A DNA stretch of 32,755 nucleotides from assembly GCA_043805855.1 (NCBI GenBank), contig JAZDHP010000035.1, positions 1-32,755 of the forward strand, written 5' to 3'. Below the pieces are notes generated by a model. That model searched no databases. It was not told where the DNA came from and saw only the letters and a list, made by a program, of their open reading frames with translations. Below, in pieces: positions 1,184 to 17,570 of this stretch (position 1 is its first letter; every line of letters starts with the position of its first letter). The DNA is from Candidatus Micrarchaeota archaeon. Its GTDB lineage: Archaea > Micrarchaeota > Micrarchaeia > Norongarragalinales > UBA8480. Position numbers and translations under genes: made by a program.

Positions 1184-1215
1184 GCAAGCGCTGCGCAAAC
1201 TTGTAAGTGATTTTT

Positions 1216-2472
1216 ATGGTAGACTACTCTAAGTTCAGTGAACTGTACAAACTTAGTCCTGATAAGCGAGTTGACTTACTGGTAAAGCAAGGAGTGTTGA
1301 CGCCTGAAGATGCTAAACTGTTGCTAAAAGAAGGCAGCCTTGGGATTGACACTGCAAATAGAATGATTGAAAGCGTTGTTGGCACTCATGCGCTTCCATT
1401 GGGAATTGCAACTAACTTTAAGATAAACGGCAAGGATTATCTAGTGCCAATGGTTGTTGAAGAACCGTCGGTTGTTGCAGCGGCTAGTAACGCGGCTAAA
1501 ATGGCGCTTCCGGGGGGTTTCACAACAAGTGCCGATGAACCGATAATGACGGGACAAGTTCAATTAGTTGGGGTTAAAGACGCGGCTAAGGCAATTTTCG
1601 CAATAAATGCAGTTGCCAAGCAACTTATAGAAAAGGCAAATGCAACTAATGCAATGCTTGTACAATTGGGCGGCGGCGCTAGAAACCTATTGGCACATAA
1701 GTTAACTAGTGATATGTTAGTTGTTAATTTTGACGTTGACGTTCGCGATGCAATGGGCGCTAATACGATTAATACAATGGCTGAAGTGATTGCGCCTGAA
1801 TTGGAAAAGCTCAGTGGCGGCAAAGTTCGCCTGCGTATACTTACTAACCTCGCTGACAAACGCTTAGCGCGGGCGAGTGTTATTTACGACAAGAAAGTAA
1901 TTGGTGAAGACGCTGTAAATGGTGTTGTCGATGCTTATTTATTTGCATTTCACGATGTGTACCGCGCGTGTACTCATAATAAAGGAATAATGAATGGAAT
2001 TGATCCAGTGGTAGTTGCAACTGGTAATGACTGGCGTGCAGTTGAAGCAGGCGCACACGCTTACGCGGCTACTAGGAATGGAGGGTACAAGCCGTTAACA
2101 AAGTGGGAGAAAACTAAGGAAGGTAATCTATTGGGAAGTATAGAACTTCCGCTTGCGCTTGGATTAGTTGGTGGTGCAACGAAGACGCATCCAATTGCGC
2201 AAATTAGTTTGAAAATTCTCGGGGTAAAAACCGCACAAGAATTAGCGCAGGTTGTTGCAGCTGTTGGACTAGCTCAAAACTTTGCAGCGTTGCGTGCATT
2301 GAGCACTGAGGGAATTCAACGCGGGCACATGAAGTTACACTCAAAGAACATTGCAGTTATTGCAGGTGCAAATGGAAGCGAGATTGACGCGGTTGCAAAG
2401 CAAATTGTCGCTGATAAAAAAGTAAACGTTGATTACAGCCGCGAAGTGCTTGAAAAACTAAGGGGAGAGTAA
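1216..2472 (+). CDS. mvaA: HMG-CoA reductase, class II
   Basis: Motifs EEPSVVAA, DVRDAMGANTIN, THNKGIMNGI, GNDWRAVEAGAH, GIQRGHMKLH. ATG at 1216 is preferred because the upstream GTGAT looks like an SD element. Confidence 0.96.
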   Translation: MVDYSKFSELYKLSPDKRVDLLVKQGVLTPEDAKLLLKEGSLGIDTANRMIESVVGTHALPLGIATNFKINGKDYLVPMVVEEPSVVAAASNAAKMALPGGFTTSADEPIMTGQVQLVGVKDAAKAIFAINAVAKQLIEKANATNAMLVQLGGGARNLLAHKLTSDMLVVNFDVDVRDAMGANTINTMAEVIAPELEKLSGGKVRLRILTNLADKRLARASVIYDKKVIGEDAVNGVVDAYLFAFHDVYRACTHNKGIMNGIDPVVVATGNDWRAVEAGAHAYAATRNGGYKPLTKWEKTKEGNLLGSIELPLALGLVGGATKTHPIAQISLKILGVKTAQELAQVVAAVGLAQNFAALRALSTEGIQRGHMKLHSKNIAVIAGANGSEIDAVAKQIVADKKVNVDYSREVLEKLRGE

Positions 2473-2479
2473 AATAAAC

Positions 2480-3523
2480 GTGGCAAAAGAAATAATTGCA
2501 ACTGCGCCTTGTAAAGTTATTCTCACTGGAGAACATGCAGTTGTGCACGGTTCTCCGGCACTAGCGATAAGCATTGAACCATTTAGCAGCGTACACTTTC
2601 TTGAAGAGCAAGGTGCGCTTGGTTTTGTAATTAAACAAAAGGGAGCAGATGTTGTTCTAAATGAAAAGTGCGAAGTTCAAAGTGGAAATGATTGGAAATG
2701 GTATTCTGAAGTAATTGACTTGTTGAAAAAATTAATTAAAGAAACTGGTTTTAAACCACGCGCGAAAATAGTTATTGAAATTAAAGCAGATTTTCCCAAG
2801 GGTGTTGGCGGTAGTTCAAGCATTGCAGCTGCTTTTATAATTGCGTTTTACAAATTCGCCGGTGCGCTGTTAACAAGTGAAAAGTTATTCGAAGACGTGC
2901 AATTTCTCGATGCAATTGCCCACGGGGGAAGTGCGAGTGGAATCGACGCCATGACCGTTATAGGCGGACCGATGAAACTCGTGCGTACTGTTGAACAAAA
3001 TAACTGCGTAAAGTGGAACTTTTACCTGCAAAAAGTTGAACTTCCACAGGGCACAACGTTGCTTGTAATTGACACTTCGCGAGGCGGTAAACGCGCGGCA
3101 ACAGGAGAAATGACGGCGTTGTTTGCAAAAAACATGAGCTTCGTTAATAGCGATGGTTCTACAAAGAAACTTTTTGAATTAACTGCTACGGATAAAGCTA
3201 AACTCGTGCCATTTACTGAAATTTTTGAAAAAATAATGGCGGAGCTTAAACCAAACGGCGACGCCATAGTGCTCGGTGCGTTGATGAACGCGAACCACGC
3301 GTTACTTGAGAAAATGCAAATGTCTTCACAGGGAATAGAAGAAGCGCGGAAGATTTGCATTGCAAATAAAGTTTATGGAGTTAAACTAACTGGCGGCGGC
3401 GGTGAAGGCGGCGCGGTAATTGCACTTATTAATAAGAACAATGCTGTGAAAATAATTAACGAGCTAGAAAAACATGGATTCAAAGCTTTTGAAGCTAAAA
3501 CCACAAAAGGTGCATTTCAATGA
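2480..3523 (+). CDS. mvk: Mevalonate kinase (GHMP family)
   Basis: APCKVILTGEHAVVHG, FPKGVGGSSS (GHMP loop), HGGSASGIDA, KLTGGGGEGG; lies in the mevalonate operon. Confidence 0.88.
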   Translation: MAKEIIATAPCKVILTGEHAVVHGSPALAISIEPFSSVHFLEEQGALGFVIKQKGADVVLNEKCEVQSGNDWKWYSEVIDLLKKLIKETGFKPRAKIVIEIKADFPKGVGGSSSIAAAFIIAFYKFAGALLTSEKLFEDVQFLDAIAHGGSASGIDAMTVIGGPMKLVRTVEQNNCVKWNFYLQKVELPQGTTLLVIDTSRGGKRAATGEMTALFAKNMSFVNSDGSTKKLFELTATDKAKLVPFTEIFEKIMAELKPNGDAIVLGALMNANHALLEKMQMSSQGIEEARKICIANKVYGVKLTGGGGEGGAVIALINKNNAVKIINELEKHGFKAFEAKTTKGAFQ

Positions 3524-4608
3524 ACGTAATTACATTTGAAGCTACTCCGAATATCGCGGTTATAAAATATTGGGGTAAACGCGACGATGTGTTAATTCTG
3601 CCAACAAACAGCAGCATAAGTATGACGCTTGACTCGCTAAAGACGCGTACAAGTGTAATGTTCGACCCGAAGTTAAAAAGTGACGAGCTGTGGCTCAACG
3701 GTAAAGAAGTTGACTTGACTGGCGACAGCGAGGCAAGCGAACGTTTGAAACAACTCGACGTAATTCGTGAAAAAGCCGGGATTAAAGAAAAAGCGAGAAT
3801 TGTTTCAATTAATTGTTTTCCAACTGCGGCTGGGTTTGCATCTTCTGCTTCTGGATTAGCTGCACTTGCCTGCGCTGCTAGTAAAGCAGCTGGGCTAAAA
3901 TTAAGCACTGCTGAACTTTCCGTACTTGCTCGCCTTGGCAGTGGTTCAGCGTCACGCTCAGTGTTAGGTGGTTTTGTCGAGTGGAAAAAAGGAGAAAAAA
4001 TCGACGGAAGTGATTCATTTGCAGTTCAACTTGCGCCTGCTTTGCACTGGAAAGAAATGCGCGTAGTGAGTGTTGTTGTTAGCAGCGGAAAAAAGAAAAT
4101 TTCCTCGCGGGTAGGAATGAAACAAACAGTTGCGAATAGTGTTTTGTTCAAATCGCGCCTAGAGTACTTGCCGAAAACAATTGGCGAAATGGAAACTGCA
4201 ATTAAACAAAAGGATTTTGAAAAATTTGCGTTGCTCGCAATGCGTGATAGTAACAATATGCACGCGGTTATGCTTGACACGCAACCGCCAATAATTTACC
4301 TCAATGACAAATCAAAAATGTTAATTGAACTTGTGAACGAAATCAACGAAACCGCTGGAAAAATAATTGCAGGCTATACTTTTGATGCAGGGCCAAATTG
4401 TCACATTTACACTCTAGAAGAAAATGTCAAAACAATAACTACCGCGTTGCAAAAAATTGAAGGAATTGAGAAAATAGTTGTTTCAAAGCCAGGCAACGGG
4501 CCGCAGGAGTTAAGCGACGCTGCGAGTCACTTAATTGATCCGTCTAATGGAAAGCCGCGCGAGCACTATTTTGACGAGAGCAAAAACGCAATTGTTGTAA
4601 AGTTGTAA
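3520..4608 (+). CDS. mvaD: Diphosphomevalonate decarboxylase
   Basis: PNIAVIKYWGKRD, LPTNSSISMTL, FPTAAGFASSASG, RLGSGSASRS, KKISSRVGM, YTFDAGPN; ATGA overlap with mvk. Confidence 0.94.
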   Translation: MNVITFEATPNIAVIKYWGKRDDVLILPTNSSISMTLDSLKTRTSVMFDPKLKSDELWLNGKEVDLTGDSEASERLKQLDVIREKAGIKEKARIVSINCFPTAAGFASSASGLAALACAASKAAGLKLSTAELSVLARLGSGSASRSVLGGFVEWKKGEKIDGSDSFAVQLAPALHWKEMRVVSVVVSSGKKKISSRVGMKQTVANSVLFKSRLEYLPKTIGEMETAIKQKDFEKFALLAMRDSNNMHAVMLDTQPPIIYLNDKSKMLIELVNEINETAGKIIAGYTFDAGPNCHIYTLEENVKTITTALQKIEGIEKIVVSKPGNGPQELSDAASHLIDPSNGKPREHYFDESKNAIVVKL

Positions 4609-4651
4609 AATAGTAAAAGTAAAAAACAATAAAAATATTTGTGAATAAAAA

Positions 4652-5809
4652 ATGGTAGTTGCATCTGCGCCTGGAAAAGTGCTTTGGGTTGGAGCTTACG
4701 CACTTTCAGAAAAAGGTAATCGTGGGTTTGTCACAAGTGTAGAAGCACGAGTATATGCAAAAGCAACTGAACTTCCGTTTCCAAATGTTGAAATTATTTC
4801 TCAACAATTGCAAATAAATGAAAGTGGAAAATTTGCAAATGGAAAAATTACTATTGCTGACGAACGGGCTAAATTTGTTAAAAACGCAATTGAAAATACT
4901 TTAAATTATTTGTCTATTGTGTTATCTAAATCCAAAAACGGTAGCAGTAGACTAAAGGGAGTGAAACTGGAAACTTACAGCGACGAAGCGTTTAGCGTTG
5001 AAGGGGCGAAGAGTGGGTTGGGGTCAAGTGCAGCTGTAACAGTAGCTACGGTAGCTGCGGTGCTGGCGCTTCATGATGTTGACTTTGAAAATTCGGCTGG
5101 AAAAGAAGTTGTACACAAGTTAGCTCAATTTGCGCACTGTACTTCGCAGGGAAAAGTTGGCAGTGGTTTTGACGTGGCTGCTGGTACGTTTGGTGCAATT
5201 GAATACTCGCGGTTTTCGCCAGAGCTTATTAGTGTCGGCGCTAGTGATGTTGTTAACCAGAATTGGGACTATTTTGTAAAACCAATGCAGTTGCCTCGCG
5301 TTTTCACTGCGGTTATTGCAAATATTCCAAACACTAGTACGAGTACTACAAAAATGATGGCAGGCATTAAACCCTTCAAGGAAAAACATCTTGATGAATA
5401 CAATGCGCTTTTTGCTAAACTAAACGAGCATAACAAAACCGTACTAAACGCACTTCGTGCATTAACTAAAGGTACTGAATCGCTGCAAGAATTTAGAATT
5501 GCATTTGACGCCAGCCGTTCTCTTGTTAAAAAACTAGGTGAAAAAAGCGGGGTTGAAATTGAATCAAATGCATTTAGTGAATTGATAGAAGATTCCAAGC
5601 AACACGGCGCGTTTGTTGCATTGCTTCCAGGCGCAGGCGGGGGAGATGCAATTGCTGCATTGTGCTTGTCTGCGAGAGATGCTAGTCGGTTAAAGAGTTT
5701 TTGGAACTCTAGAGGTCTCCAGGTGCTAAACATTTCAACAAGTGACAAAGGCGTTAAATTGGAAAACAGTTTTCCGCTTGACGGCGTTGTTAATAAATCA
5801 CGTAATTGA
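4652..5809 (+). CDS. Phosphomevalonate kinase, ERG8-like GHMP type
   Basis: SAPGKVLWVGAY, KSGLGSSAAVT, AHCTSQGKVGSGFDVAAGTFGAIEYSRF (ERG8-like signature), PGAGGGDAI. Confidence 0.88.
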   Translation: MVVASAPGKVLWVGAYALSEKGNRGFVTSVEARVYAKATELPFPNVEIISQQLQINESGKFANGKITIADERAKFVKNAIENTLNYLSIVLSKSKNGSSRLKGVKLETYSDEAFSVEGAKSGLGSSAAVTVATVAAVLALHDVDFENSAGKEVVHKLAQFAHCTSQGKVGSGFDVAAGTFGAIEYSRFSPELISVGASDVVNQNWDYFVKPMQLPRVFTAVIANIPNTSTSTTKMMAGIKPFKEKHLDEYNALFAKLNEHNKTVLNALRALTKGTESLQEFRIAFDASRSLVKKLGEKSGVEIESNAFSELIEDSKQHGAFVALLPGAGGGDAIAALCLSARDASRLKSFWNSRGLQVLNISTSDKGVKLENSFPLDGVVNKSRN

Positions 5810-5844
5810 AATAACTTATACTGTTATTAAAAAGTGAGTGAATA

Positions 5845-6885
5845 ATGAGCGAAAAAATTAGTGAAAAAAGTGTAAGTGAACAAACTAGCAGCCGCAAGAC
5901 GGATCATGTTAAGATTGCACTTGAAAAAAACGTGCAACACTCTACGCCAACTGGTTTTGATGAAATTGAATTTTTACACTATGCGCTTCCTGAGTTGAAC
6001 TTCGACGCGATTGATACAACAGTAACTTTTCTCAAACGTAATTTTTCTCTTCCGTTTATGGTTCTTTCAATGACTGGCGGCCACGAAAGCGTCGAGAGAA
6101 TAAACAAAGACATTGCGCTAGCTTGTGAAGAGAAGAATATTCCTATGGGAGTTGGTTCACAAAGAGCAATGCTGGAAAAACCAGAATTAGCGAAAACGTT
6201 CAAAGTGAAAGACGTTGCACCGAACGTATTTCTATGCGGTAACATTGGTGGCTACCAGCTGAAGAACTATTCAATTGACAAAATCGAGAAAATGATTTGT
6301 GATATTGAGGCAGACGCGCTTTGTATTCATTTAAATCCACTGCAAGAAGTTGTCCAACCTGAAGGCGACCGCAATTGGGCAGGGGTACTAAAAGCAATTG
6401 AAAAAACTTGCAGCCAACTTGATGTTCCAATTATTGCCAAGGAAGTTGGAGCTGGTTTAAACGTCGACGTGTGTAGGGAGTTGGAAGCAGCTGGCGTTGC
6501 AGCAATTGACGTCAGCGGAACTGGCGGTACCTCGTGGGCGGGGATTGAAGTTTACCGCAAAGGCGCAGAAGCTGGAAACTTGTATTGGAATTGGGGCGTG
6601 CCAACTGTAATTGCACTTCAAGAAGCTGCGAAGACTGTGAAAATTCCTCTTATCGCAAGTGGCGGTGTACGCAACGGGTTACACGTTGCAAAAGCACTGC
6701 GCTTGGGAGCAACTCTCGCCGGCGCAGCTTCTCCTTTTCTCAAAGCGCAGAACACTGGCGGCGCAGACGGCGTGAAAAAAGAAATTGAGAAGTGGGAAAA
6801 AGAATTAAAAATTGCAATGTTCCTAACACGCAGCAAAGATCTAGCTACGTTGAAAAAAGCGAAGCTGCTAAACGCGATTAACTAA
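5845..6885 (+). CDS. fni: Isopentenyl-diphosphate delta-isomerase, type 2 (FMN-dependent)
   Basis: RKTDHV, SMTGG, GVGSQR, HLNPLQEVVQPEGD, KEVGAG, GGTSW, IASGGVRNG. Confidence 0.96.
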   Translation: MSEKISEKSVSEQTSSRKTDHVKIALEKNVQHSTPTGFDEIEFLHYALPELNFDAIDTTVTFLKRNFSLPFMVLSMTGGHESVERINKDIALACEEKNIPMGVGSQRAMLEKPELAKTFKVKDVAPNVFLCGNIGGYQLKNYSIDKIEKMICDIEADALCIHLNPLQEVVQPEGDRNWAGVLKAIEKTCSQLDVPIIAKEVGAGLNVDVCRELEAAGVAAIDVSGTGGTSWAGIEVYRKGAEAGNLYWNWGVPTVIALQEAAKTVKIPLIASGGVRNGLHVAKALRLGATLAGAASPFLKAQNTGGADGVKKEIEKWEKELKIAMFLTRSKDLATLKKAKLLNAIN

Positions 6886-7596: not shown

Positions 7597-8409
7597 ATGG
7601 AAATTGACTTAGAAATTTGCAAAACTATAGCTATGCGTAAAGGCTTGTCGTTACAGTTTGTGATTAAAGAATTTCAAGTATTTGATGTGCTGGGGCAGAT
7701 AGCAATGGAAACCGCGGCAAGCAAAGAGTTGGTTTTCAAAGGCGGCACCGCACTTAATGCCGTTTATTTACATGACAAGCAACGGTTTTCAGAAGACTTA
7801 GATTTTGATCTAGTTGATGCCAATGTGCCACAGACTGTTAAATACGCAGATAAATTGGCTAAAACAATGACTGGGTTTGAAATTGGAGAATTCCGGCGAG
7901 TGCGTCAAACTGTTATGTTTGAATGTAGTTTTGAATCGCCTCTAGGTGGGCGCGACCACGTGCGGGTTGACATTTGCGGCAAAAAACTAATAACTGCAAA
8001 TCCAATAGTTATTGGTTCGGCTAAATCTACTTTTACTGATCGTTTTGTAACTGGTTTTTACGTGTATTCCTTTGATGATTTAGTTGCGCGGAAAATGAAC
8101 GCGTTGCGTGACCGAACTGAAGGTAAAGACGTGTTTGACGTGTACAATAGTTTGCCCCAGTGTGAAAATATACTTGTTGCAATTGAAAAGGCTCTAAAAA
8201 GCGAGGGTAGCGACGAAACAGTAGAACAATTTTTGGAAGAAACACTAAGCGCTGTTAAAAAATTGAACGTAAAGAAAGCTAGCCAGTTGACAAATTCCTT
8301 TATTCCTTCTCCAAGCCGACCTCGAAGCTGGGAAGAGCTAAAAAATAGCTTACTGATGGAATTGCAAAAAATTCTAGACCAAAAAATAGGCAAAGCTAAG
8401 CGCGCGTAA
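7597..8409 (+). CDS. abiEii: AbiEii/AbiGii-family nucleotidyltransferase toxin
   Basis: LVFKGGTAL, RFSEDLDF, ARKMNALRDR...KDVFD motifs; follows the AbiEi-like gene. Confidence 0.9.
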   Translation: MEIDLEICKTIAMRKGLSLQFVIKEFQVFDVLGQIAMETAASKELVFKGGTALNAVYLHDKQRFSEDLDFDLVDANVPQTVKYADKLAKTMTGFEIGEFRRVRQTVMFECSFESPLGGRDHVRVDICGKKLITANPIVIGSAKSTFTDRFVTGFYVYSFDDLVARKMNALRDRTEGKDVFDVYNSLPQCENILVAIEKALKSEGSDETVEQFLEETLSAVKKLNVKKASQLTNSFIPSPSRPRSWEELKNSLLMELQKILDQKIGKAKRA

Positions 8410-9648: not shown

Positions 9649-10578
9649 TTAGATTGAATCAATTGCCTTTTTGATAATTGCCGCGCTTTTCTTAAATGCT
9701 GTTTGTTCCTTTTTATCGAGTTTGGGAAATAGTTGTTTCTTTACCCCGCCTGTGCCGACAACGCACGGCACGCTTAGACAAATTCCGCTAACGCCGTAAT
9801 AGTTGTTAATGTGAGTTGAAACCGGCATAACGTCGCAGTGGTCGTTTAACACTGCTTGCACTAAATCCGAGACAACCAGTCCAATTGCGTAGTAAGTTGC
9901 TCCCTTGCGCGAAATAATTTCACTCGCGGCGTTGTTAGTTTGTTTAAAAGCAGCTTCCGCTTTCTTTTCATTAAAACGCGGGTAATCTTTCAATGGAATT
10001 TCGCCTATTGCTGCGTTGCTCCACATTGGGAACTCGCTGTCGCCATGTTCTCCTAAGATGTAGGCGTCGACGCTGCATGGGTTTACGCTCAACGCTTGGC
10101 CGAGGAAATGTTTAAGCCGTGCAGTATCAAGCGCTGTGCCGCTTCCGAAAACGCGATTGCGTGGAAACTTTGAATACTTAAGTGCCAAATGAGTCATTAC
10201 GTCAACTGGGTTTGTAACAATGAGAAGCACTGCGTTTGGGGCTGCTTTTGCAATTTGTGGAATTATTTTTTTGAAAATCGCGGCGTTTGTCTTCAGCAAA
10301 TCTAAACGTGTTTGTCCTGGCTTTTGATTTGCGCCTGCTGTTACAACGACGACGTCTGAGCCACGGCATAAATTGTAGTCGCTTCCATATTCAACTTTTC
10401 CGCCGCCTACAATTGCCAAGCCATCGGCCAAGTCCATAGCTTCTCCCTCGGCTTTTTCGCGATTAACGTCAATAAGTGCAATTTCATTCGCAACTTGTTT
10501 AATTAGCATAGCGTAAGCTGCAGTTGCACCGACAAAACCAGCTCCAACAATCGAAACTTTAAAACCACACTTGTTCAT
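9649..10578 (-). CDS. ldh: L-lactate dehydrogenase
   Basis: GAGFVG Rossmann motif; TAGANQKPGQTRLDL with Gln at the specificity position (Arg in MDH); VTNPVD, SGTALDTAR, GEHGDSE, KGATYYAIG. Start ATG at 10578 lies 23 nt after a TTTTTTAA box (10601-10608, minus). Confidence 0.88.
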   Translation of the reverse strand: MNKCGFKVSIVGAGFVGATAAYAMLIKQVANEIALIDVNREKAEGEAMDLADGLAIVGGGKVEYGSDYNLCRGSDVVVVTAGANQKPGQTRLDLLKTNAAIFKKIIPQIAKAAPNAVLLIVTNPVDVMTHLALKYSKFPRNRVFGSGTALDTARLKHFLGQALSVNPCSVDAYILGEHGDSEFPMWSNAAIGEIPLKDYPRFNEKKAEAAFKQTNNAASEIISRKGATYYAIGLVVSDLVQAVLNDHCDVMPVSTHINNYYGVSGICLSVPCVVGTGGVKKQLFPKLDKKEQTAFKKSAAIIKKAIDSI

Positions 10579-10627: not shown

Positions 10628-10663
10628 GTATTATAAAAATACCCAACAGTATGTTTTTAATAC
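10628..10663. promoter_or_regulatory. Two tandem GTAT-N7-ATAC palindromic boxes overlapping TATA-like elements; candidate operator of the HxlR regulator
   Basis: GTAT-TATAAAA-ATAC (10628-10642) and GTAT-GTTTTTA-ATAC (10649-10663), 21 bp apart. Confidence 0.6.
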
Positions 10664-10698
10664 CCTTTTTGTCTATTTGTTGCTAGGGTGTTTGTTTA

Positions 10699-10983
10699 AT
10701 GTCTTCAATAGTTTCTAGTGGGCACAATTGTCCGTTTTTCAAGTGGCTTTCTATTTTTGAAAAAAAGTGGAACACGCGCATAGTTCACACGCTTTTTGAC
10801 AAGGAAATGGGCTTCAATGAATTGAAAGGTAATTTAAAGGGAATAACGCAAGGCGTGTTATCGCAACGCCTACGTGAACTTCAGAAAATGGGAGTTATTG
10901 AGAAGAAAACAGTTCAGCGTAAGCCAATTGTTGTACGCTATGCTGTGACTGAACGTTTTAAGCACTGTGCAAAGTGCTGGTGA
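10699..10983 (+). CDS. HxlR/DUF24-family winged-helix transcriptional regulator with C-terminal CxxC
   Basis: CP...KKWNTRIV...GFNELKGNLKGITQGVLSQRLRELQKMGVIEK...PIVVRYAVT; ends HCAKCW. Confidence 0.88.
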   Translation: MSSIVSSGHNCPFFKWLSIFEKKWNTRIVHTLFDKEMGFNELKGNLKGITQGVLSQRLRELQKMGVIEKKTVQRKPIVVRYAVTERFKHCAKCW

Positions 10984-10994
10984 AATAAAAACAA

Positions 10995-11720
10995 ATGCTA
11001 GTTGTTGAAAATTTACATGTTGAGGTTAAAGGTAAAGTCGTGCTCAACGGAGTTAATATGAAAATTCCAGACGGCGAAACGCACGTTTTACTCGGTCCAA
11101 ATGGAAGTGGTAAAAGTTCACTCGCAGCTGTGCTAATGGGTAACCTGAAGTATAAAGTTGTAAGGGGAAAAATTAGTTTTCAAGAAAAGAATTTGCTTAA
11201 ACTTTCTCCTGAAGAGCGCGCGAAGCTTGGTTTATTCCTAGCGTTTCAAAACCCCGTTGAAATTCCAGGAATTAACATTTTCAATTTTCTTTATCATTCT
11301 TGCAAGGCACGCGGTGCTAGTCATAGCTCAATTTTTGAATTTAAGAAAAAAGCCGACGAAGCAGCGAGGGTACTTGGTTTGTCAAGTGAATTTCTTAACC
11401 GTGATTTAAACGTTGGATTTTCAGGAGGCGAAAAGAAACGCATTGAGGCATTGCAGTTGCTTCTCGCGCAGCCAAAACTTGCAATTATTGATGAAATTGA
11501 TTCTGGGCTAGATGTTGACGGGTTAAAAGCAGTTGCAATTGCACTTCGCTCACTGGAAAACCATGAGTTTTCCTCTTTAATTATCACGCATCACGCGAAG
11601 TTATTGCATTTTCTTAAACCAGACAAAGTGCACGTTTTGAAAAATGGAGTAATCGTAAAAACCGGCGGGCAAGAACTGATTAGCTATGTTGAAAAAAATG
11701 GCTATGGTGAATTGCAATGA
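10995..11720 (+). CDS. sufC: Fe-S cluster assembly ATPase SufC
   Basis: GPNGSGKS, FLAFQNPVEIPG, RDLNVGFSGGEKKR, DEIDSGLDVD, IITH. Confidence 0.96.
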   Translation: MLVVENLHVEVKGKVVLNGVNMKIPDGETHVLLGPNGSGKSSLAAVLMGNLKYKVVRGKISFQEKNLLKLSPEERAKLGLFLAFQNPVEIPGINIFNFLYHSCKARGASHSSIFEFKKKADEAARVLGLSSEFLNRDLNVGFSGGEKKRIEALQLLLAQPKLAIIDEIDSGLDVDGLKAVAIALRSLENHEFSSLIITHHAKLLHFLKPDKVHVLKNGVIVKTGGQELISYVEKNGYGELQ

Positions 11721-13063
11721 AAACAAACAAACAATTCACAGGACAGCGCAACTTAGTGCAAATTGTAACTCGCGTTTCTAAATTGAAAAAAGAATCAGCG
11801 TGGATGTTGCAAAAGAGATTGCAGGCGCTCGAGTGGTTTGATAAAATACCTTTTCCAAAGTGGGGGCCGAATTTAAGTGAAATTAATTTTAAAGATTTGA
11901 GTTATTATGCTCGGCCGGAGAAAGAAACGCAAAAAAAGTGGAGCGACGTTCCTGTTACAATTCGCAAAACTTTTGAACAACTTGGAATTCCGCAAGCAGA
12001 GCGAGAAGCGCTTGCCGGCGTCGGCGCGCAGTTTGAAAGTGAATCAGTTTACCATAATCTAAAAACTGAGTTGGAAGTGCAGGGCGTTATTTTCCTGCCA
12101 ATGGAAGAAGCGGTGAAAAAACATCCTGCTTTAGTAAAGAAGTATTTTGGAACAATTGTGCCCGCGAGTGACAACAAGTTTGCTGCATTGAACACAGCGT
12201 TGTGGAGCGGAGGGAGTTTTATTTACATTCCAAAAAACGTAAACGTCGAGATACCGCTGCAAGCGTATTTCAGAATTAACTCTAAGAACTTCGGGCAGTT
12301 TGAACGAACACTGATAATTGCTGATGAAGGTTCGCAGGTTAATTATCTCGAAGGGTGCAGCGCACCACTATATTCGATAGATTCTCTCCACGCTGCTGTT
12401 GTAGAAATAGTTGCGTTGAAAAATAGCCGAGTTAAATATTCAACTGTTCAGAATTGGTCGCAGAACGTTTACAATTTGGTTACAAAGCGTTGCCACGCTT
12501 ATGAAAATGCAGTTGTAGAGTGGATCGACGCTAATTTTGGGAGTAAAATTTCAATGAAATACCCCGCGGTTTACCTCCTCGGTAAAAATAGCCGCGCTGA
12601 TTTGCTTTCACTCGCGTTTGCCAACGGTAAACAAGTGCAAGACACTGGTGGAAAAGTTTTTCACATTGCTCCCGACACGCATTCGCGTATTATTTCCAAA
12701 TCAGTTTCCAAAAACGGCGGTTATTGTATTTACCGGGGGTTAGCGCATATTGCAAAGGGAGCAGTTGGTGCGGTTTCAAGTGTAAAGTGTGACGCGCTGT
12801 TGCTTGACAAGAAATCACGCAGCGATACGTTTCCATCGATGAAAGTTGACGAGGAAGATGCAGCTGCTTCGCATGAGGCGTACACTGGAAAAATCAGCGA
12901 AGAACAGTTGTTTTACCTGCGCTCGCGCGGTTTCAGTGAAGAGGAAGCAACGGCGTTGATTGTGCTTGGGTTTGTTTCCGACGTTTCGCGCCAACTTCCG
13001 GCTGAATATGCAATTGAGTTGAATAATTTAATCCAGTTACAAACAACTGGTAAAATTAAGTGA
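11717..13063 (+). CDS. sufB: Fe-S cluster assembly protein SufB
   Basis: LGIPQAER..LAGVGAQFESE, DNKFAALNTALWSGGSFIY, PLQAYFRIN, GQFERTLII, YLEGCSAP, TVQNW, CDALL, HEA. Confidence 0.96.
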   Translation: MKTNKQFTGQRNLVQIVTRVSKLKKESAWMLQKRLQALEWFDKIPFPKWGPNLSEINFKDLSYYARPEKETQKKWSDVPVTIRKTFEQLGIPQAEREALAGVGAQFESESVYHNLKTELEVQGVIFLPMEEAVKKHPALVKKYFGTIVPASDNKFAALNTALWSGGSFIYIPKNVNVEIPLQAYFRINSKNFGQFERTLIIADEGSQVNYLEGCSAPLYSIDSLHAAVVEIVALKNSRVKYSTVQNWSQNVYNLVTKRCHAYENAVVEWIDANFGSKISMKYPAVYLLGKNSRADLLSLAFANGKQVQDTGGKVFHIAPDTHSRIISKSVSKNGGYCIYRGLAHIAKGAVGAVSSVKCDALLLDKKSRSDTFPSMKVDEEDAAASHEAYTGKISEEQLFYLRSRGFSEEEATALIVLGFVSDVSRQLPAEYAIELNNLIQLQTTGKIK

Positions 13064-13106
13064 AATAATTTGTAAAATAAGTGACGAAAAATTAAGTGAA
13101 ATAATT
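13052..13106. repeat. 19-bp perfect direct repeat (AAAATTAAGTGAAATAATT x2) with a partial third copy between them
   Basis: Copies at 13052-13070 and 13088-13106; partial AAAATAAGTGA at 13074-13084. Confidence 0.85.
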
Positions 13107-13109
13107 AAA

Positions 13110-14312
13110 ATGAACAAAAGAGATTTTCCAATTTTCAAAAAGAAAATAAACGGCAAGCCGCTTGTTTATTTAGACAGCGCGAGCACAACGCAAAAACCTA
13201 CGGCGGTTATTGAAAGCGAAAAAGATTTTTACGAGCAACACAACGCCAACGTTCACCGGAGCGTTAACTCATTAAGCCAAGAGGCAACTGAGCTCTATGA
13301 GGGTGCCCGGGAAAAAGTTGCAAATTTTGTCGGTGCGCAACGTGAAGAAATTATTTTCACGCGCAACGCAACTGAATCGATTAATTTAGTTGCGCGTACT
13401 TTTGGTTCACAAAAAGTAAAGCGCGGCGGCACTATTCTCCTTACAGAAATGGAACACCATAGTAATATCGTGCCGTGGCAGTTGTTGGCGAAAGAAAAAG
13501 GCGCGAAGGTGGAATTTGTGCCAATCACTGTTAGCGGACAACTTGATTTAGAAGAAATGGAAGTACAGCTTGCGCGGCGGCCGGCGCTGTTTGCGTTTAC
13601 TCACGTTTCCAACGTTTTGGGAACAGTTAATCCAGTTGAAAAAATTGTGAAAATTGCGCGAAAATACCGTGTGCCGGTTGTTCTCGACGCATGTCAAAGT
13701 GTAGGGCACTTTCCAATTAATGTTAAAAAGTTGGGGGTTGACTTCGCCGCGTTTTCTGGCCATAAGTTATTCGCGCCAACTGGAATTGGGTTCCTCTATG
13801 GAAAAAAGAAACTTCTTGACGAAATGCCTCCGTTTCTCACTGGCGGGGACATGATTAAAACCGTTTCAAAAACTACATCAACGTGGAATGACGTGCCGTG
13901 GAAATTCGAAGCTGGAACGCCGAATATTGCGGGGGCAGTTGCACTCGGCGCTGCGGTTGATTATTTGAATCACGTCGGAATGAACAAAATTCACTCTTAC
14001 AATTCAAAACTAGTAAACTACTGCGTTGCTGAATTGCAAAAGCTGGGCTTTGTTAAGGTTTATCCGCCGTTGAAAAATAAATACGGGGCAGTTGCGTTTA
14101 ACGTTAACGACGTTCACCCGCACGATGTTAGTACTGTGCTTGACGGTGAGGGAGTTGAGATTCGTGCTGGTCACCATTGTTGCCAGCCGTTGATGAAAGT
14201 GCTCGGCGTTGAGTCAACTTGCCGTGCGTCTTTCCAGTTTTACAACGACGAACGAGATGTCGATGCGTTTGTGAATGGATTAAAAAAGTGCAAGAAGGTG
14301 TTTAGCGTTTAA
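13110..14312 (+). CDS. sufS: Cysteine desulfurase SufS (group II)
   Basis: VYLDSASTTQKP, MEHHSN.VPW, FSGHK (PLP lysine), FEAGTPN, RAGHHC (catalytic Cys). Confidence 0.96.
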   Translation: MNKRDFPIFKKKINGKPLVYLDSASTTQKPTAVIESEKDFYEQHNANVHRSVNSLSQEATELYEGAREKVANFVGAQREEIIFTRNATESINLVARTFGSQKVKRGGTILLTEMEHHSNIVPWQLLAKEKGAKVEFVPITVSGQLDLEEMEVQLARRPALFAFTHVSNVLGTVNPVEKIVKIARKYRVPVVLDACQSVGHFPINVKKLGVDFAAFSGHKLFAPTGIGFLYGKKKLLDEMPPFLTGGDMIKTVSKTTSTWNDVPWKFEAGTPNIAGAVALGAAVDYLNHVGMNKIHSYNSKLVNYCVAELQKLGFVKVYPPLKNKYGAVAFNVNDVHPHDVSTVLDGEGVEIRAGHHCCQPLMKVLGVESTCRASFQFYNDERDVDAFVNGLKKCKKVFSV

Positions 14313-14674
14313 TGAACGAACTTTACTCTGAATTGCTTCTTGAATATTATCGCAGTCCGCCGAACAAGGGAAAAATTGTGAAGCCAACGTTATGCGCGAG
14401 AGATGTTAATGTTTCTTGCGGTGACGAAATTCAAGTACAGTTGAAAATCTCCGACGGTAAAATTGTTGATGCAAAATTTACTGGTAAAGGCTGTGTAGTT
14501 AGCCAAGCTGCTGTAGCGATGTTGTTGGAAAACGTGAAAGGAAAAACCCTTGCCGAAGTTGCAAAGATGAAAAATGAAGATGCGCTTGCGTTGCTTGGGA
14601 TTAAACTAACTCCAATGCGTCTCAATTGTGCGTTGCTTGGGTTTAATGTTTTGAAAAAGGCGCTAGCAAAGTAA
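14312..14674 (+). CDS. sufU: SufU/IscU-type scaffold or sulfur-transfer protein
   Basis: LY..LLLEYY..P.N.G, NVSCGDEI, GKGCVVSQAA, RLNCALL (three conserved Cys). Confidence 0.9.
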   Translation: MNELYSELLLEYYRSPPNKGKIVKPTLCARDVNVSCGDEIQVQLKISDGKIVDAKFTGKGCVVSQAAVAMLLENVKGKTLAEVAKMKNEDALALLGIKLTPMRLNCALLGFNVLKKALAK

Positions 14675-16900: not shown

Positions 16901-17320
16901 CTAAAAAGGGTTTATTACTTTTAGCCATTTTATATTTTTAAAGTCTTTTTCGTTTTCAGTCACTATTGTTGAAACGCCAGCTTTTTCCATTGTTGCAACT
17001 AGTAAAGCATCGAAAAAAGGAACGTCATACTCTCCTTTAATTTGGCAAGCACGTAGCACCTCTTGTTCTGAATAATTTAAAACTGGAACCATTCCAGCTA
17101 AGTTTTCAACAAAATTAATTGCTTTGCTTAGTTCAACATTAACCTTTTTTCCAGTTACAACGAAAACAAATTCAGCTAAATTTTGTGAACTGACAATGCA
17201 ATTTTCAGCATCGCAATAAGTTTTCAATAATTTAATTGCCTTCTCGCGCTTTTCAGAGTCATTGTCAAAAGCGTATACTAATACATTAGTGTCAATCAAA
17301 GTTCTTGAATCTAGATTCAT
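16901..17320 (-). CDS. vapC: PIN-domain ribonuclease toxin (VapC family)
   Basis: LIDTNVLVYA, SSQNLAEF, FFDALLVAT, IVTENEKDF, INPF. Confidence 0.92.
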   Translation of the reverse strand: MNLDSRTLIDTNVLVYAFDNDSEKREKAIKLLKTYCDAENCIVSSQNLAEFVFVVTGKKVNVELSKAINFVENLAGMVPVLNYSEQEVLRACQIKGEYDVPFFDALLVATMEKAGVSTIVTENEKDFKNIKWLKVINPF

Positions 17321-17570
17321 AAAGTTCACTCCTGTTTTCATATACTTTTTTGCCCTTTAGCCCGAGGTGAACGCCTTTGTCTAAAAGTGCAAAGAATTGC
17401 TTTTTACACTCTAGCTTGCGCGCTTCGCTTGAAACACTGTAAAAGCTTGAAATCGCTTCTGTAGCTGCTTCGCTAAGCGAACCTTTCTTGCCGCCGTATT
17501 TCTCCTTTGCTATTTCTCTTAGCATTTTTTCAGTTTCATCATTTAATGAAAGCAACACATCTGCCACCAT
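17292..17570 (-). CDS. vapB: Ribbon-helix-helix antitoxin (VapB-like)
   Basis: Small gene overlapping and upstream of vapC; VLLSLNDETEKMLRE...KKGSLSEAATEAI RHH-like pattern; C-terminal RSELYE. Confidence 0.75.
   Translation of the reverse strand: MVADVLLSLNDETEKMLREIAKEKYGGKKGSLSEAATEAISSFYSVSSEARKLECKKQFFALLDKGVHLGLKGKKVYENRSELYESRFKNFD

Follow-up and report, generated by a model that had tools for sequence, protein, structure and literature searches.

Which protein controls the iron-sulfur (Fe-S) cluster assembly operon of a Candidatus Micrarchaeota archaeon, and to which signal does it respond? The question is raised by a DNA stretch of 32,755 nucleotides (nt) (contig JAZDHP010000035.1 of assembly GCA_043805855.1, called the window below), in which a winged-helix regulator of the HxlR/DUF24 family is encoded as the first gene of a sufCBSU operon. 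Comparison within the order revealed that the regulator subfamily, named HxlR-CW here after its Cys-Trp ending, an operator RGTAT-N7-ATACY and Fe-S assembly operons occur jointly, and that the same operator stands before genes of the iron permease FTR1. HxlR-CW is most likely an autoregulating dimeric repressor of iron/Fe-S homeostasis in this Micrarchaeota order, and a sensing mechanism based on iron or Fe-S clusters is given a probability of about 0.6.

The HxlR-CW regulator

The features of the window that carry the argument are as follows.

10628..10642, no strand: operator box 1, GTAT-N7-ATAC, GTATTATAAAAATAC, overlapping the TATA-like TTATAAAA; matrix score 19.6 bits
10649..10663, no strand: operator box 2, GTATGTTTTTAATAC, identical to the order-wide consensus, just downstream of the TATA-like element; matrix score 21.0 bits
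10699..10983, plus strand: HxlR/DUF24 winged-helix regulator (PF01638), CW subfamily (Cys11-Pro, Glu21, Cys93-Trp94, short helix a5)
10995..11720, plus strand: sufC, TIGR01978 above cut-off
11717..13063, plus strand: sufB, TIGR01980 above cut-off
13110..14312, plus strand: sufS, cysteine desulfurase, TIGR01979 above cut-off
14312..14674, plus strand: sufU, TIGR01994 above cut-off

The regulator has 94 amino acids (aa), matches PF01638 with an E-value of 3.2e-16 (59.4 bits against a cut-off of 20.8) and is the single HxlR match in its genome. A preliminary description made from the letters of this DNA had placed it at the head of sufCBSU with a gap of 11 nt to sufC, which proved correct, as did the Cys-Pro near the N-terminus (Cys11) and the HCAKCW end (Cys90 and Cys93), which give three Cys residues and two His residues adjoining them (His9 and His89). 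The four suf genes were identified by NCBIfam profiles; sufC overlaps sufB and sufS overlaps sufU, with 46 nt between sufB and sufS, while sufD was not found in the window's genome (1.03 Mb, 92% complete), where tblastn gave a single SufB/D match.

In an order-wide search of 68 genomes, 21 regulator matches were obtained at E 1e-17, and one of these, a full-length paralogue of another type (G035), was left out, so that HxlR-CW is counted in 20 genomes from four families; the copy of G003 is cut by a contig end, which leaves 19 complete copies. Alignment showed that Cys11, Glu21, Cys93 and Trp94 are invariant in all 19, whereas the controls carry a Cys at the position equivalent to 93 in 3/79 cases and G/S/A at position 21. 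Cys93 lies 12 residues past the wing Tyr (Tyr+12), Trp94 (Tyr+13) is the end of the chain, and the usual Trp at Tyr+19, found in 52/85 controls, is missing. An extra Cys or His occurs in the N-terminal arm of 17/19 copies (16 counted by script, the window protein by hand) versus 21/61 controls.

The CxxC that the preliminary description had stressed was rejected as a signature of the subfamily. Only the window protein has Cys at residue 90, where the alignment shows L/V/M/I/A for the 18 other orthologues, and among 21 further homologues from protein collections CW stands at the same place in 19 and CxxCW in none, so that the motif is conserved in 0/39 homologues and Cys90 appears incidental. 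Also rejected was the idea, taken from a gapped alignment, that Trp94 is the canonical DUF24 Trp shifted by a 6-residue deletion; truncation is preferred because the ungapped register with YodB and the controls places Cys93 and Trp94 at Tyr+12 and Tyr+13.

Outside the order, the CW ending was absent from the best 17 loci of a 401-genome sample of the phylum, scans of named-genome and metagenome loci returned no CW members, and the ESM Atlas gave generic HxlR clusters only. The taxon-labelled relatives are Candidatus Micrarchaeota by NCBI labels (P0021; 5/19 matches in one homologue search). Among other HxlR paralogues of the phylum, L020, L040 and L042 have a Cys at the same Tyr+12 and lie divergent from CDGSH genes, and L023 and L046 have a Cys-rich tail and lie divergent from ferredoxin-domain genes.

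Linkage to Fe-S assembly and the operator

Of the complete copies, 16 precede sufC, one precedes sufB and one precedes nifS/iscU, so that 17/19 head a suf operon and 18/19 an Fe-S assembly operon of some kind. The genome of the nifS/iscU-linked copy lacks a SufB match, and genes for a NifS/IscS-type desulfurase and an IscU-like protein follow the regulator there, indicating that the regulator's tie to Fe-S assembly survives a change of machinery.

The two window boxes lie 21 bp apart; two matches in the window compare with 0.12 expected, and 1/100 shuffles reached two. The TATA-like element (10631-10638) falls inside box 1, and box 2 is near the inferred transcription start. The bare 8-base GTAT-N7-ATAC pattern is found 10 times in the window's genome versus about 6 expected, and as this enrichment is mild, the meaning of the box had to come from relatives. 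With a matrix built from 14 orthologous sites of other families, the window boxes rank first and second in their genome, the next site scoring 15.7 bits. When up to one mismatch is allowed, a box is present within 200 nt of 19/20 HxlR-CW copies, 13 of them exact, with the consensus RGTATGTTTTTAATACY, and the leave-one-out matrix scores of the 19 boxed leaders were reached by at most 1/300 shuffles. The co-occurrence of regulator, suf linkage and box that had been proposed as a check thus held for suf and the box and failed for CxxC, and the idea of a suf autoregulator gained ground, since both linkages are kept across four families and the box follows the regulator.

The two boxes described earlier are real, but their two-turn phasing is peculiar to the window's genome and was rejected as essential; each of the 18 remaining boxed leaders shows a single proximal box, and in two cases a further one-mismatch match lies more than 100 nt upstream. 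At about 11/19 leaders, judged by eye, the box has a TATA-like stretch on one side and the gene on the other (by strict pattern, five with the TATA upstream versus one downstream), and this position, mostly just downstream of the TATA-like stretch, suggests repression. A sigma-70 promoter scan was uninformative for an archaeon.

The box follows the presence of the regulator. SufB occurs in 36 genomes, 18 of them without HxlR-CW; 17 such loci were taken, suf operons led by a gene other than HxlR-CW, and of the 15 with enough upstream DNA to score none carries the box (best score 4.5 bits). The pattern GTAYGTTTHNHATAC, built from leader sites, is found in 15/20 HxlR-CW genomes and 0/48 others, and a palindromic pattern gives 37 sites in 17/20 versus 2 in the 48 (reversed control 13 and 17), counts in which the leader sites are circular and the genomes, being kin, are not independent. 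DtxR, present in 4/20 HxlR-CW genomes, was rejected as the owner of the box. From these comparisons HxlR-CW is very probably the direct regulator of these operons, and autoregulation of its own gene is very likely.

Iron import in the regulon

In the first pattern search, 3/7 non-leader sites lay directly before an FTR1 gene. The order's 15 FTR1 genes were then all scored with a matrix from leader sites alone. The box was found in 5/5 assessable HxlR-CW genomes (14.9-22.4 bits, 0/300 shuffles, 30-67 nt upstream of the family match), a sixth gene being cut by a contig end, and before 0/9 FTR1 genes in genomes without HxlR-CW (at most 6.5 bits). The boxed FTR1 genes of G028 and G049 were found only after the prediction. 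The proteins of the five boxed genes share 37-66% identity and are spread over three branches, with unboxed FTR1 in between, which argues that the box tracks the resident regulator and not FTR1 descent. The presence of FTR1 in the regulon strengthens an iron-related reading. The window's genome gave no Fur, Rrf2 or DtxR match, and DtxR was not found in 3/5 genomes with a boxed FTR1. FeoB was considered as a possible target; it was found only in four genomes without the regulator.

The recurrent targets are thus suf/nifS and FTR1 and not detoxification enzymes, the genomes of relatives having been scanned by pattern only. Other sites lie before a superoxide dismutase (SOD)-like gene (G007), genes of small Cys proteins (G019, G051, G036) and msrB. 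One genus has a SOD-like gene divergent from the regulator gene in 7/7 genomes, but SOD genes not linked to the regulator carry the box in only 1/5 HxlR-CW genomes examined, for which reason SOD was upheld only partly as a core target.

Fold and dimer model

In the AlphaFold model of the regulator (mean pLDDT 84), helix a1 starts at residue 13 and helix a5 is short (85-92). The top Foldseek matches are EF0647, PG_0823, YodB, QsrR and HypR. A homodimer model scored 0.51 versus 0.02 for the best control, with contacts agreeing at least 89% between runs and pLDDT of at least 86; the mark applied was reached by 20/30 solved homodimers and 1/23 single chains, and the pass may stem from likeness to solved DUF24 dimers. 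In this model Trp94 contacts Pro12' and Phe13', Cys93 contacts residues 86', 89' and 90', and residues 21 and 90 sit on the two-fold, so that Cys93 is predicted at the dimer interface, near the start of the partner's helix a1 and the two-fold axis.

Proposed mechanism

In the iron-replete cell, the dimer would sit on the box, which overlaps the TATA element or directly follows it, and keep transcription from starting. The cell's iron state would be read through Cys11 and Cys93, which the dimer interface would bring close together and which an N-terminal Cys or His would often assist; this is the weakest step of the scheme. Upon shortage of iron or clusters the site would empty, the operator would be released, and suf and iron import would be induced together. 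DNA binding, the sign of regulation and the cofactor are all inferred from sequence. As for the signal, an Fe-S cluster stands at slightly less than even odds and Fe(II) alone is rather improbable; we think the cluster the likelier of the two.

On a broader reading, which we rate at even odds, HxlR-CW would be a new minimal Fe-S/iron-sensing class in place of Fur, DtxR, IscR and SufR, a DUF24 dimer of about 90 residues per chain holding a cluster or iron between its subunits via Cys11 and Cys93, variable His/Cys residues and possibly Glu21. Within one order, at least two unrelated regulators with Cys residues, HxlR-CW among them and perhaps four in all, would swap at the head of suf operons, the four types meant being HxlR-CW, XRE, PadR and AbrB-like.

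Alternatives weighed

Several observations weigh against an iron/Fe-S sensor. Only two Cys residues per chain are invariant and 4/19 copies have just two, fewer than SufR or IscR use; a third Cys/His is lacking from the N-terminal arm of L022, P0160 and P0167; and the combination of an N-terminal with a C-terminal Cys is the layout of the YodB thiol switch. Cys11-Cys93' is not among the contacts listed by the dimer model, in which a 4Fe-4S ligand was unscored. The window's genome has no FTR1 match, the iron link resting on five relatives from two families, and what these FTR1 proteins transport is assumed on the basis of their family and REXXE motifs. Among the 37 palindromic sites, 18 are neither leader nor FTR1 sites, of which many may be chance given the reversed control, and some lie near redox genes (SOD-like, msrB, redoxin). 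One copy, in G021 (L083:5442-7133), is boxless and precedes the gene of tetraether lipid synthase Tes, a radical S-adenosylmethionine (SAM) Fe-S enzyme. The kinship of the genomes means that counts overstate independence, and a tree of 60 proteins, with the 24 CW proteins on one side of one branch (support 75/85), points only weakly to HxlR-CW monophyly.

The main competing reading is a metal-free thiol switch of the YodB/HypR type: the reduced dimer would repress, and Cys11-Cys93' or Cys93-Cys93' disulfides would release suf as repair under oxidative stress. Characterised DUF24 members sense thiol-reactive stress via an N-terminal Cys, according to the portions available of PMC3351151, PMC8063818 and PMC6798810; YodB pairs Cys6 with the C-terminal Cys101', exactly two Cys residues are invariant in HxlR-CW, and the SOD-like gene and the msrB site fit as well. 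We nevertheless hold this switch unlikely, as the sole unlinked target recurring across families is an iron importer, unlinked SOD genes are rarely boxed, and the neighbours read at 24 non-leader sites from two pattern searches included no azo- or nitroreductase or dioxygenase. In addition, the unrelated XRE regulator described below covers the same pair of suf and FTR1. Switching on iron import by oxidation runs against the usual regulatory logic, whereas joint control of import and assembly follows the scheme known from Fur and TroR, and iron/Fe-S sensing is favoured over a YodB-like switch on that ground.

An indirect iron link is very improbable, with another signal (persulfide or cysteine supply, Zn) being sensed or the protein acting as an activator at some promoters. 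It is suggested by a 14-bit operator-like site at 73528 in the window's genome (G000:C5:71837-74573, L184), before a cysteine synthase gene near a second SufS-like gene, by the two-Cys winged-helix sulfide sensors SqrR and BigR among the weaker fold matches, and by HypR, which activates from a similar half-site. It leaves FTR1 unexplained, a cysteine synthase gene was not found in the five relatives searched, and the usual position of the box between TATA-like stretch and gene fits repression. Finally, the boxes might belong to another factor or be promoter elements with the HxlR gene as a passenger, for their AT-rich spacer resembles TATA elements, and GTAT/ATAC half-sites are generic for the HxlR family, GTAT-N7-ATAC also occurring beside the phylum's paralogues L023, L040, L045, L046 and L054. 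The near-strict co-occurrence of box and HxlR-CW gene over 68 genomes, the single HxlR of the window's genome and the missing box at suf and FTR1 promoters where HxlR-CW is lacking make this scarcely credible.

Relation to known regulators

The DUF24 proteins YodB, QsrR, HypR, CatR, HxlR and Campylobacter RrpA/RrpB share fold and family with HxlR-CW, as well as the Cys at the start of helix a1 and, very likely, autoregulation; the dimer model predicts a homodimer for HxlR-CW too. In the available parts of the respective papers, the HypR operator is GTATCAAAATTGATAC, with GTAT/ATAC half-sites (PMC3351151), and that of YodB is TACT-N7-AGTA (PMC8063818). A similar QsrR operator quoted in the preliminary description could not be confirmed, the string GTATA being absent from the accessible part of PMC6798810. 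HxlR-CW differs in that helix a5 ends about 13 residues past the wing Tyr with no Trp at +19, a subfamily difference and not an exclusion, in the location of its second Cys (Tyr+12, compared with Cys49 in HypR and Cys101 in YodB) and in the invariant Glu21. The regulons differ too, covering quinone, aldehyde and hypochlorite detoxification in DUF24 sensors and Fe-S assembly with iron import in HxlR-CW.

SufR (COG2345) is likewise a winged-helix protein encoded by the first gene of the suf operon and presumed to repress itself, and putative archaeal SufR homologues were predicted upstream of suf in the part available of a preprint (bioRxiv 10.64898/2025.12.26.696629). However, SufR carries at its C-terminus a [4Fe-4S] domain in which three Cys and one Glu are the ligands, whereas HxlR-CW is a 94-aa single domain with two invariant Cys; its operators, CAAC-N6-GTTG or ACACT-N5-TGTGA, are unlike the HxlR-CW box, and a further difference is that the HxlR-CW regulon extends to FTR1. 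IscR of the Rrf2 family is also encoded first in an Fe-S assembly operon, and its cluster-dependent feedback, as described in the portion available of PMC8593673, is the logic proposed for HxlR-CW, although the latter is not Rrf2 by Pfam and lacks the ligand set Cys92/Cys98/Cys104/His107. Fur represses suf (same source, as available), and TroR represses iron uptake in Haloferax according to the accessible part of PMC10783522. Fur and DtxR/TroR therefore share the regulon logic of HxlR-CW with an unrelated family and operator: the TroR operator TTTAGGC-NNN-CCTAAAA is unlike the HxlR-CW box, and the window regulator has no FUR or DtxR domain match. HxlR-CW belongs to HxlR/DUF24 and, by analogy, would work like SufR or IscR plus Fur without membership of those families. 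A literature search, with most subscription journals outside its coverage, found no HxlR-type regulator of iron, Fe-S or suf.

Other leaders of suf operons

Among suf operons without HxlR-CW, the first gene encodes an XRE/HTH_3 protein with a Cys-rich tail in nine full cases and one partial, a PadR protein with a CxxC tail in one, an AbrB/MazE-like protein in three, SufT in one and an unknown protein in one, and in one no regulator was seen. A different box, TAAC-N3/4-GTTA, is exact at 7/9 XRE suf leaders (L066-L070, L074, L076, L078, L079) and has one mismatch at the other two; it is also exact before FTR1 in 5/6 XRE-leader genomes (FTR1 loci L108, L109, L111, L113, L116, L119, L120). It occurs at 0/20 HxlR-CW leaders and at 1/5 HxlR-CW FTR1 genes, that one with an HTH_3 gene alongside. 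With the XRE box before both suf and FTR1, two unrelated regulators cover the same target pair, and the XRE/HTH_3 leader is a candidate second iron/Fe-S regulator.

The AbrB/MazE-like leaders of sufB (L071:2721-2948, L080:2771-2998, L082:2697-2915) have an N-terminal CWVSC arm (motif CWxxC) and a shared upstream TCTCTAATATAATTCTA, two of their Pfam calls being weak and just under cut-off. The PadR leader of sufC (L075:1798-2178) has a CxxC-H tail. SufB matches in G005, G024, G026, G036, G044 and G052 are split within long open reading frames (863-1237 aa), which is consistent with inteins.

Surroundings of the locus

One further gene adjoins the operator region.

9649..10578, minus strand: lactate/malate dehydrogenase gene, divergent from the regulator

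It shares the 120-bp intergenic region with the regulator gene and is followed by a malic enzyme gene; its co-regulation with suf is possible, and this neighbour was seen in the window's own family only. Elsewhere in the window, a mevalonate operon (1207-6885) encodes class II HMG-CoA reductase, two GHMP kinases, diphosphomevalonate decarboxylase and a flavin mononucleotide (FMN)-dependent enzyme that is probably type 2 isopentenyl diphosphate isomerase. An AbiEii nucleotidyltransferase gene (7597-8409) and a PIN-domain gene preceded by a small partner (16901-17570) probably represent toxin-antitoxin pairs. Rfam gave nothing at gathering score within the window, and no RNA holder was listed.

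In two relatives, an operator-like site is kept just before the gene of a small CxxxC/His protein (L127:1308-1481, L128:1284-1472), with a weak DUF1059 match in one. A conserved element of about 140 nt, non-coding and RNA-like, with an invariant TTGCCTCCTTGGG lies behind a TATA-like box in the window's genome (G000:C13:3050-3184, minus strand, L188) and occurs in seven genomes of three families (also L186, L187, L189-L192), with no credible Rfam match. It was considered as a regulated small RNA, a box being near it in 3/5 HxlR-CW genomes at differing positions, with a weaker distant site in a fourth; as the element is also present without the regulator, that reading is not claimed.

Significance

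To our knowledge, archaeal iron regulation has been worked out mainly for haloarchaeal DtxR proteins and archaeal suf regulators have only been predicted, and our literature search found nothing on iron regulation for these small-genome archaea. The locus described here probably encodes, judging from sequence comparison, an iron/Fe-S homeostasis regulator that belongs to a family of thiol sensors and has a defined operator and a two-part regulon. It offers a testable regulator, operator and regulon, and the protein is small enough for expression in E. coli. The parallel XRE regulon presents the same circuit of suf and iron import under a different protein in the same order. If iron or a cluster is bound, one added Cys and a shortened helix would have made an iron sensor out of a family known so far for thiol/electrophile sensing.

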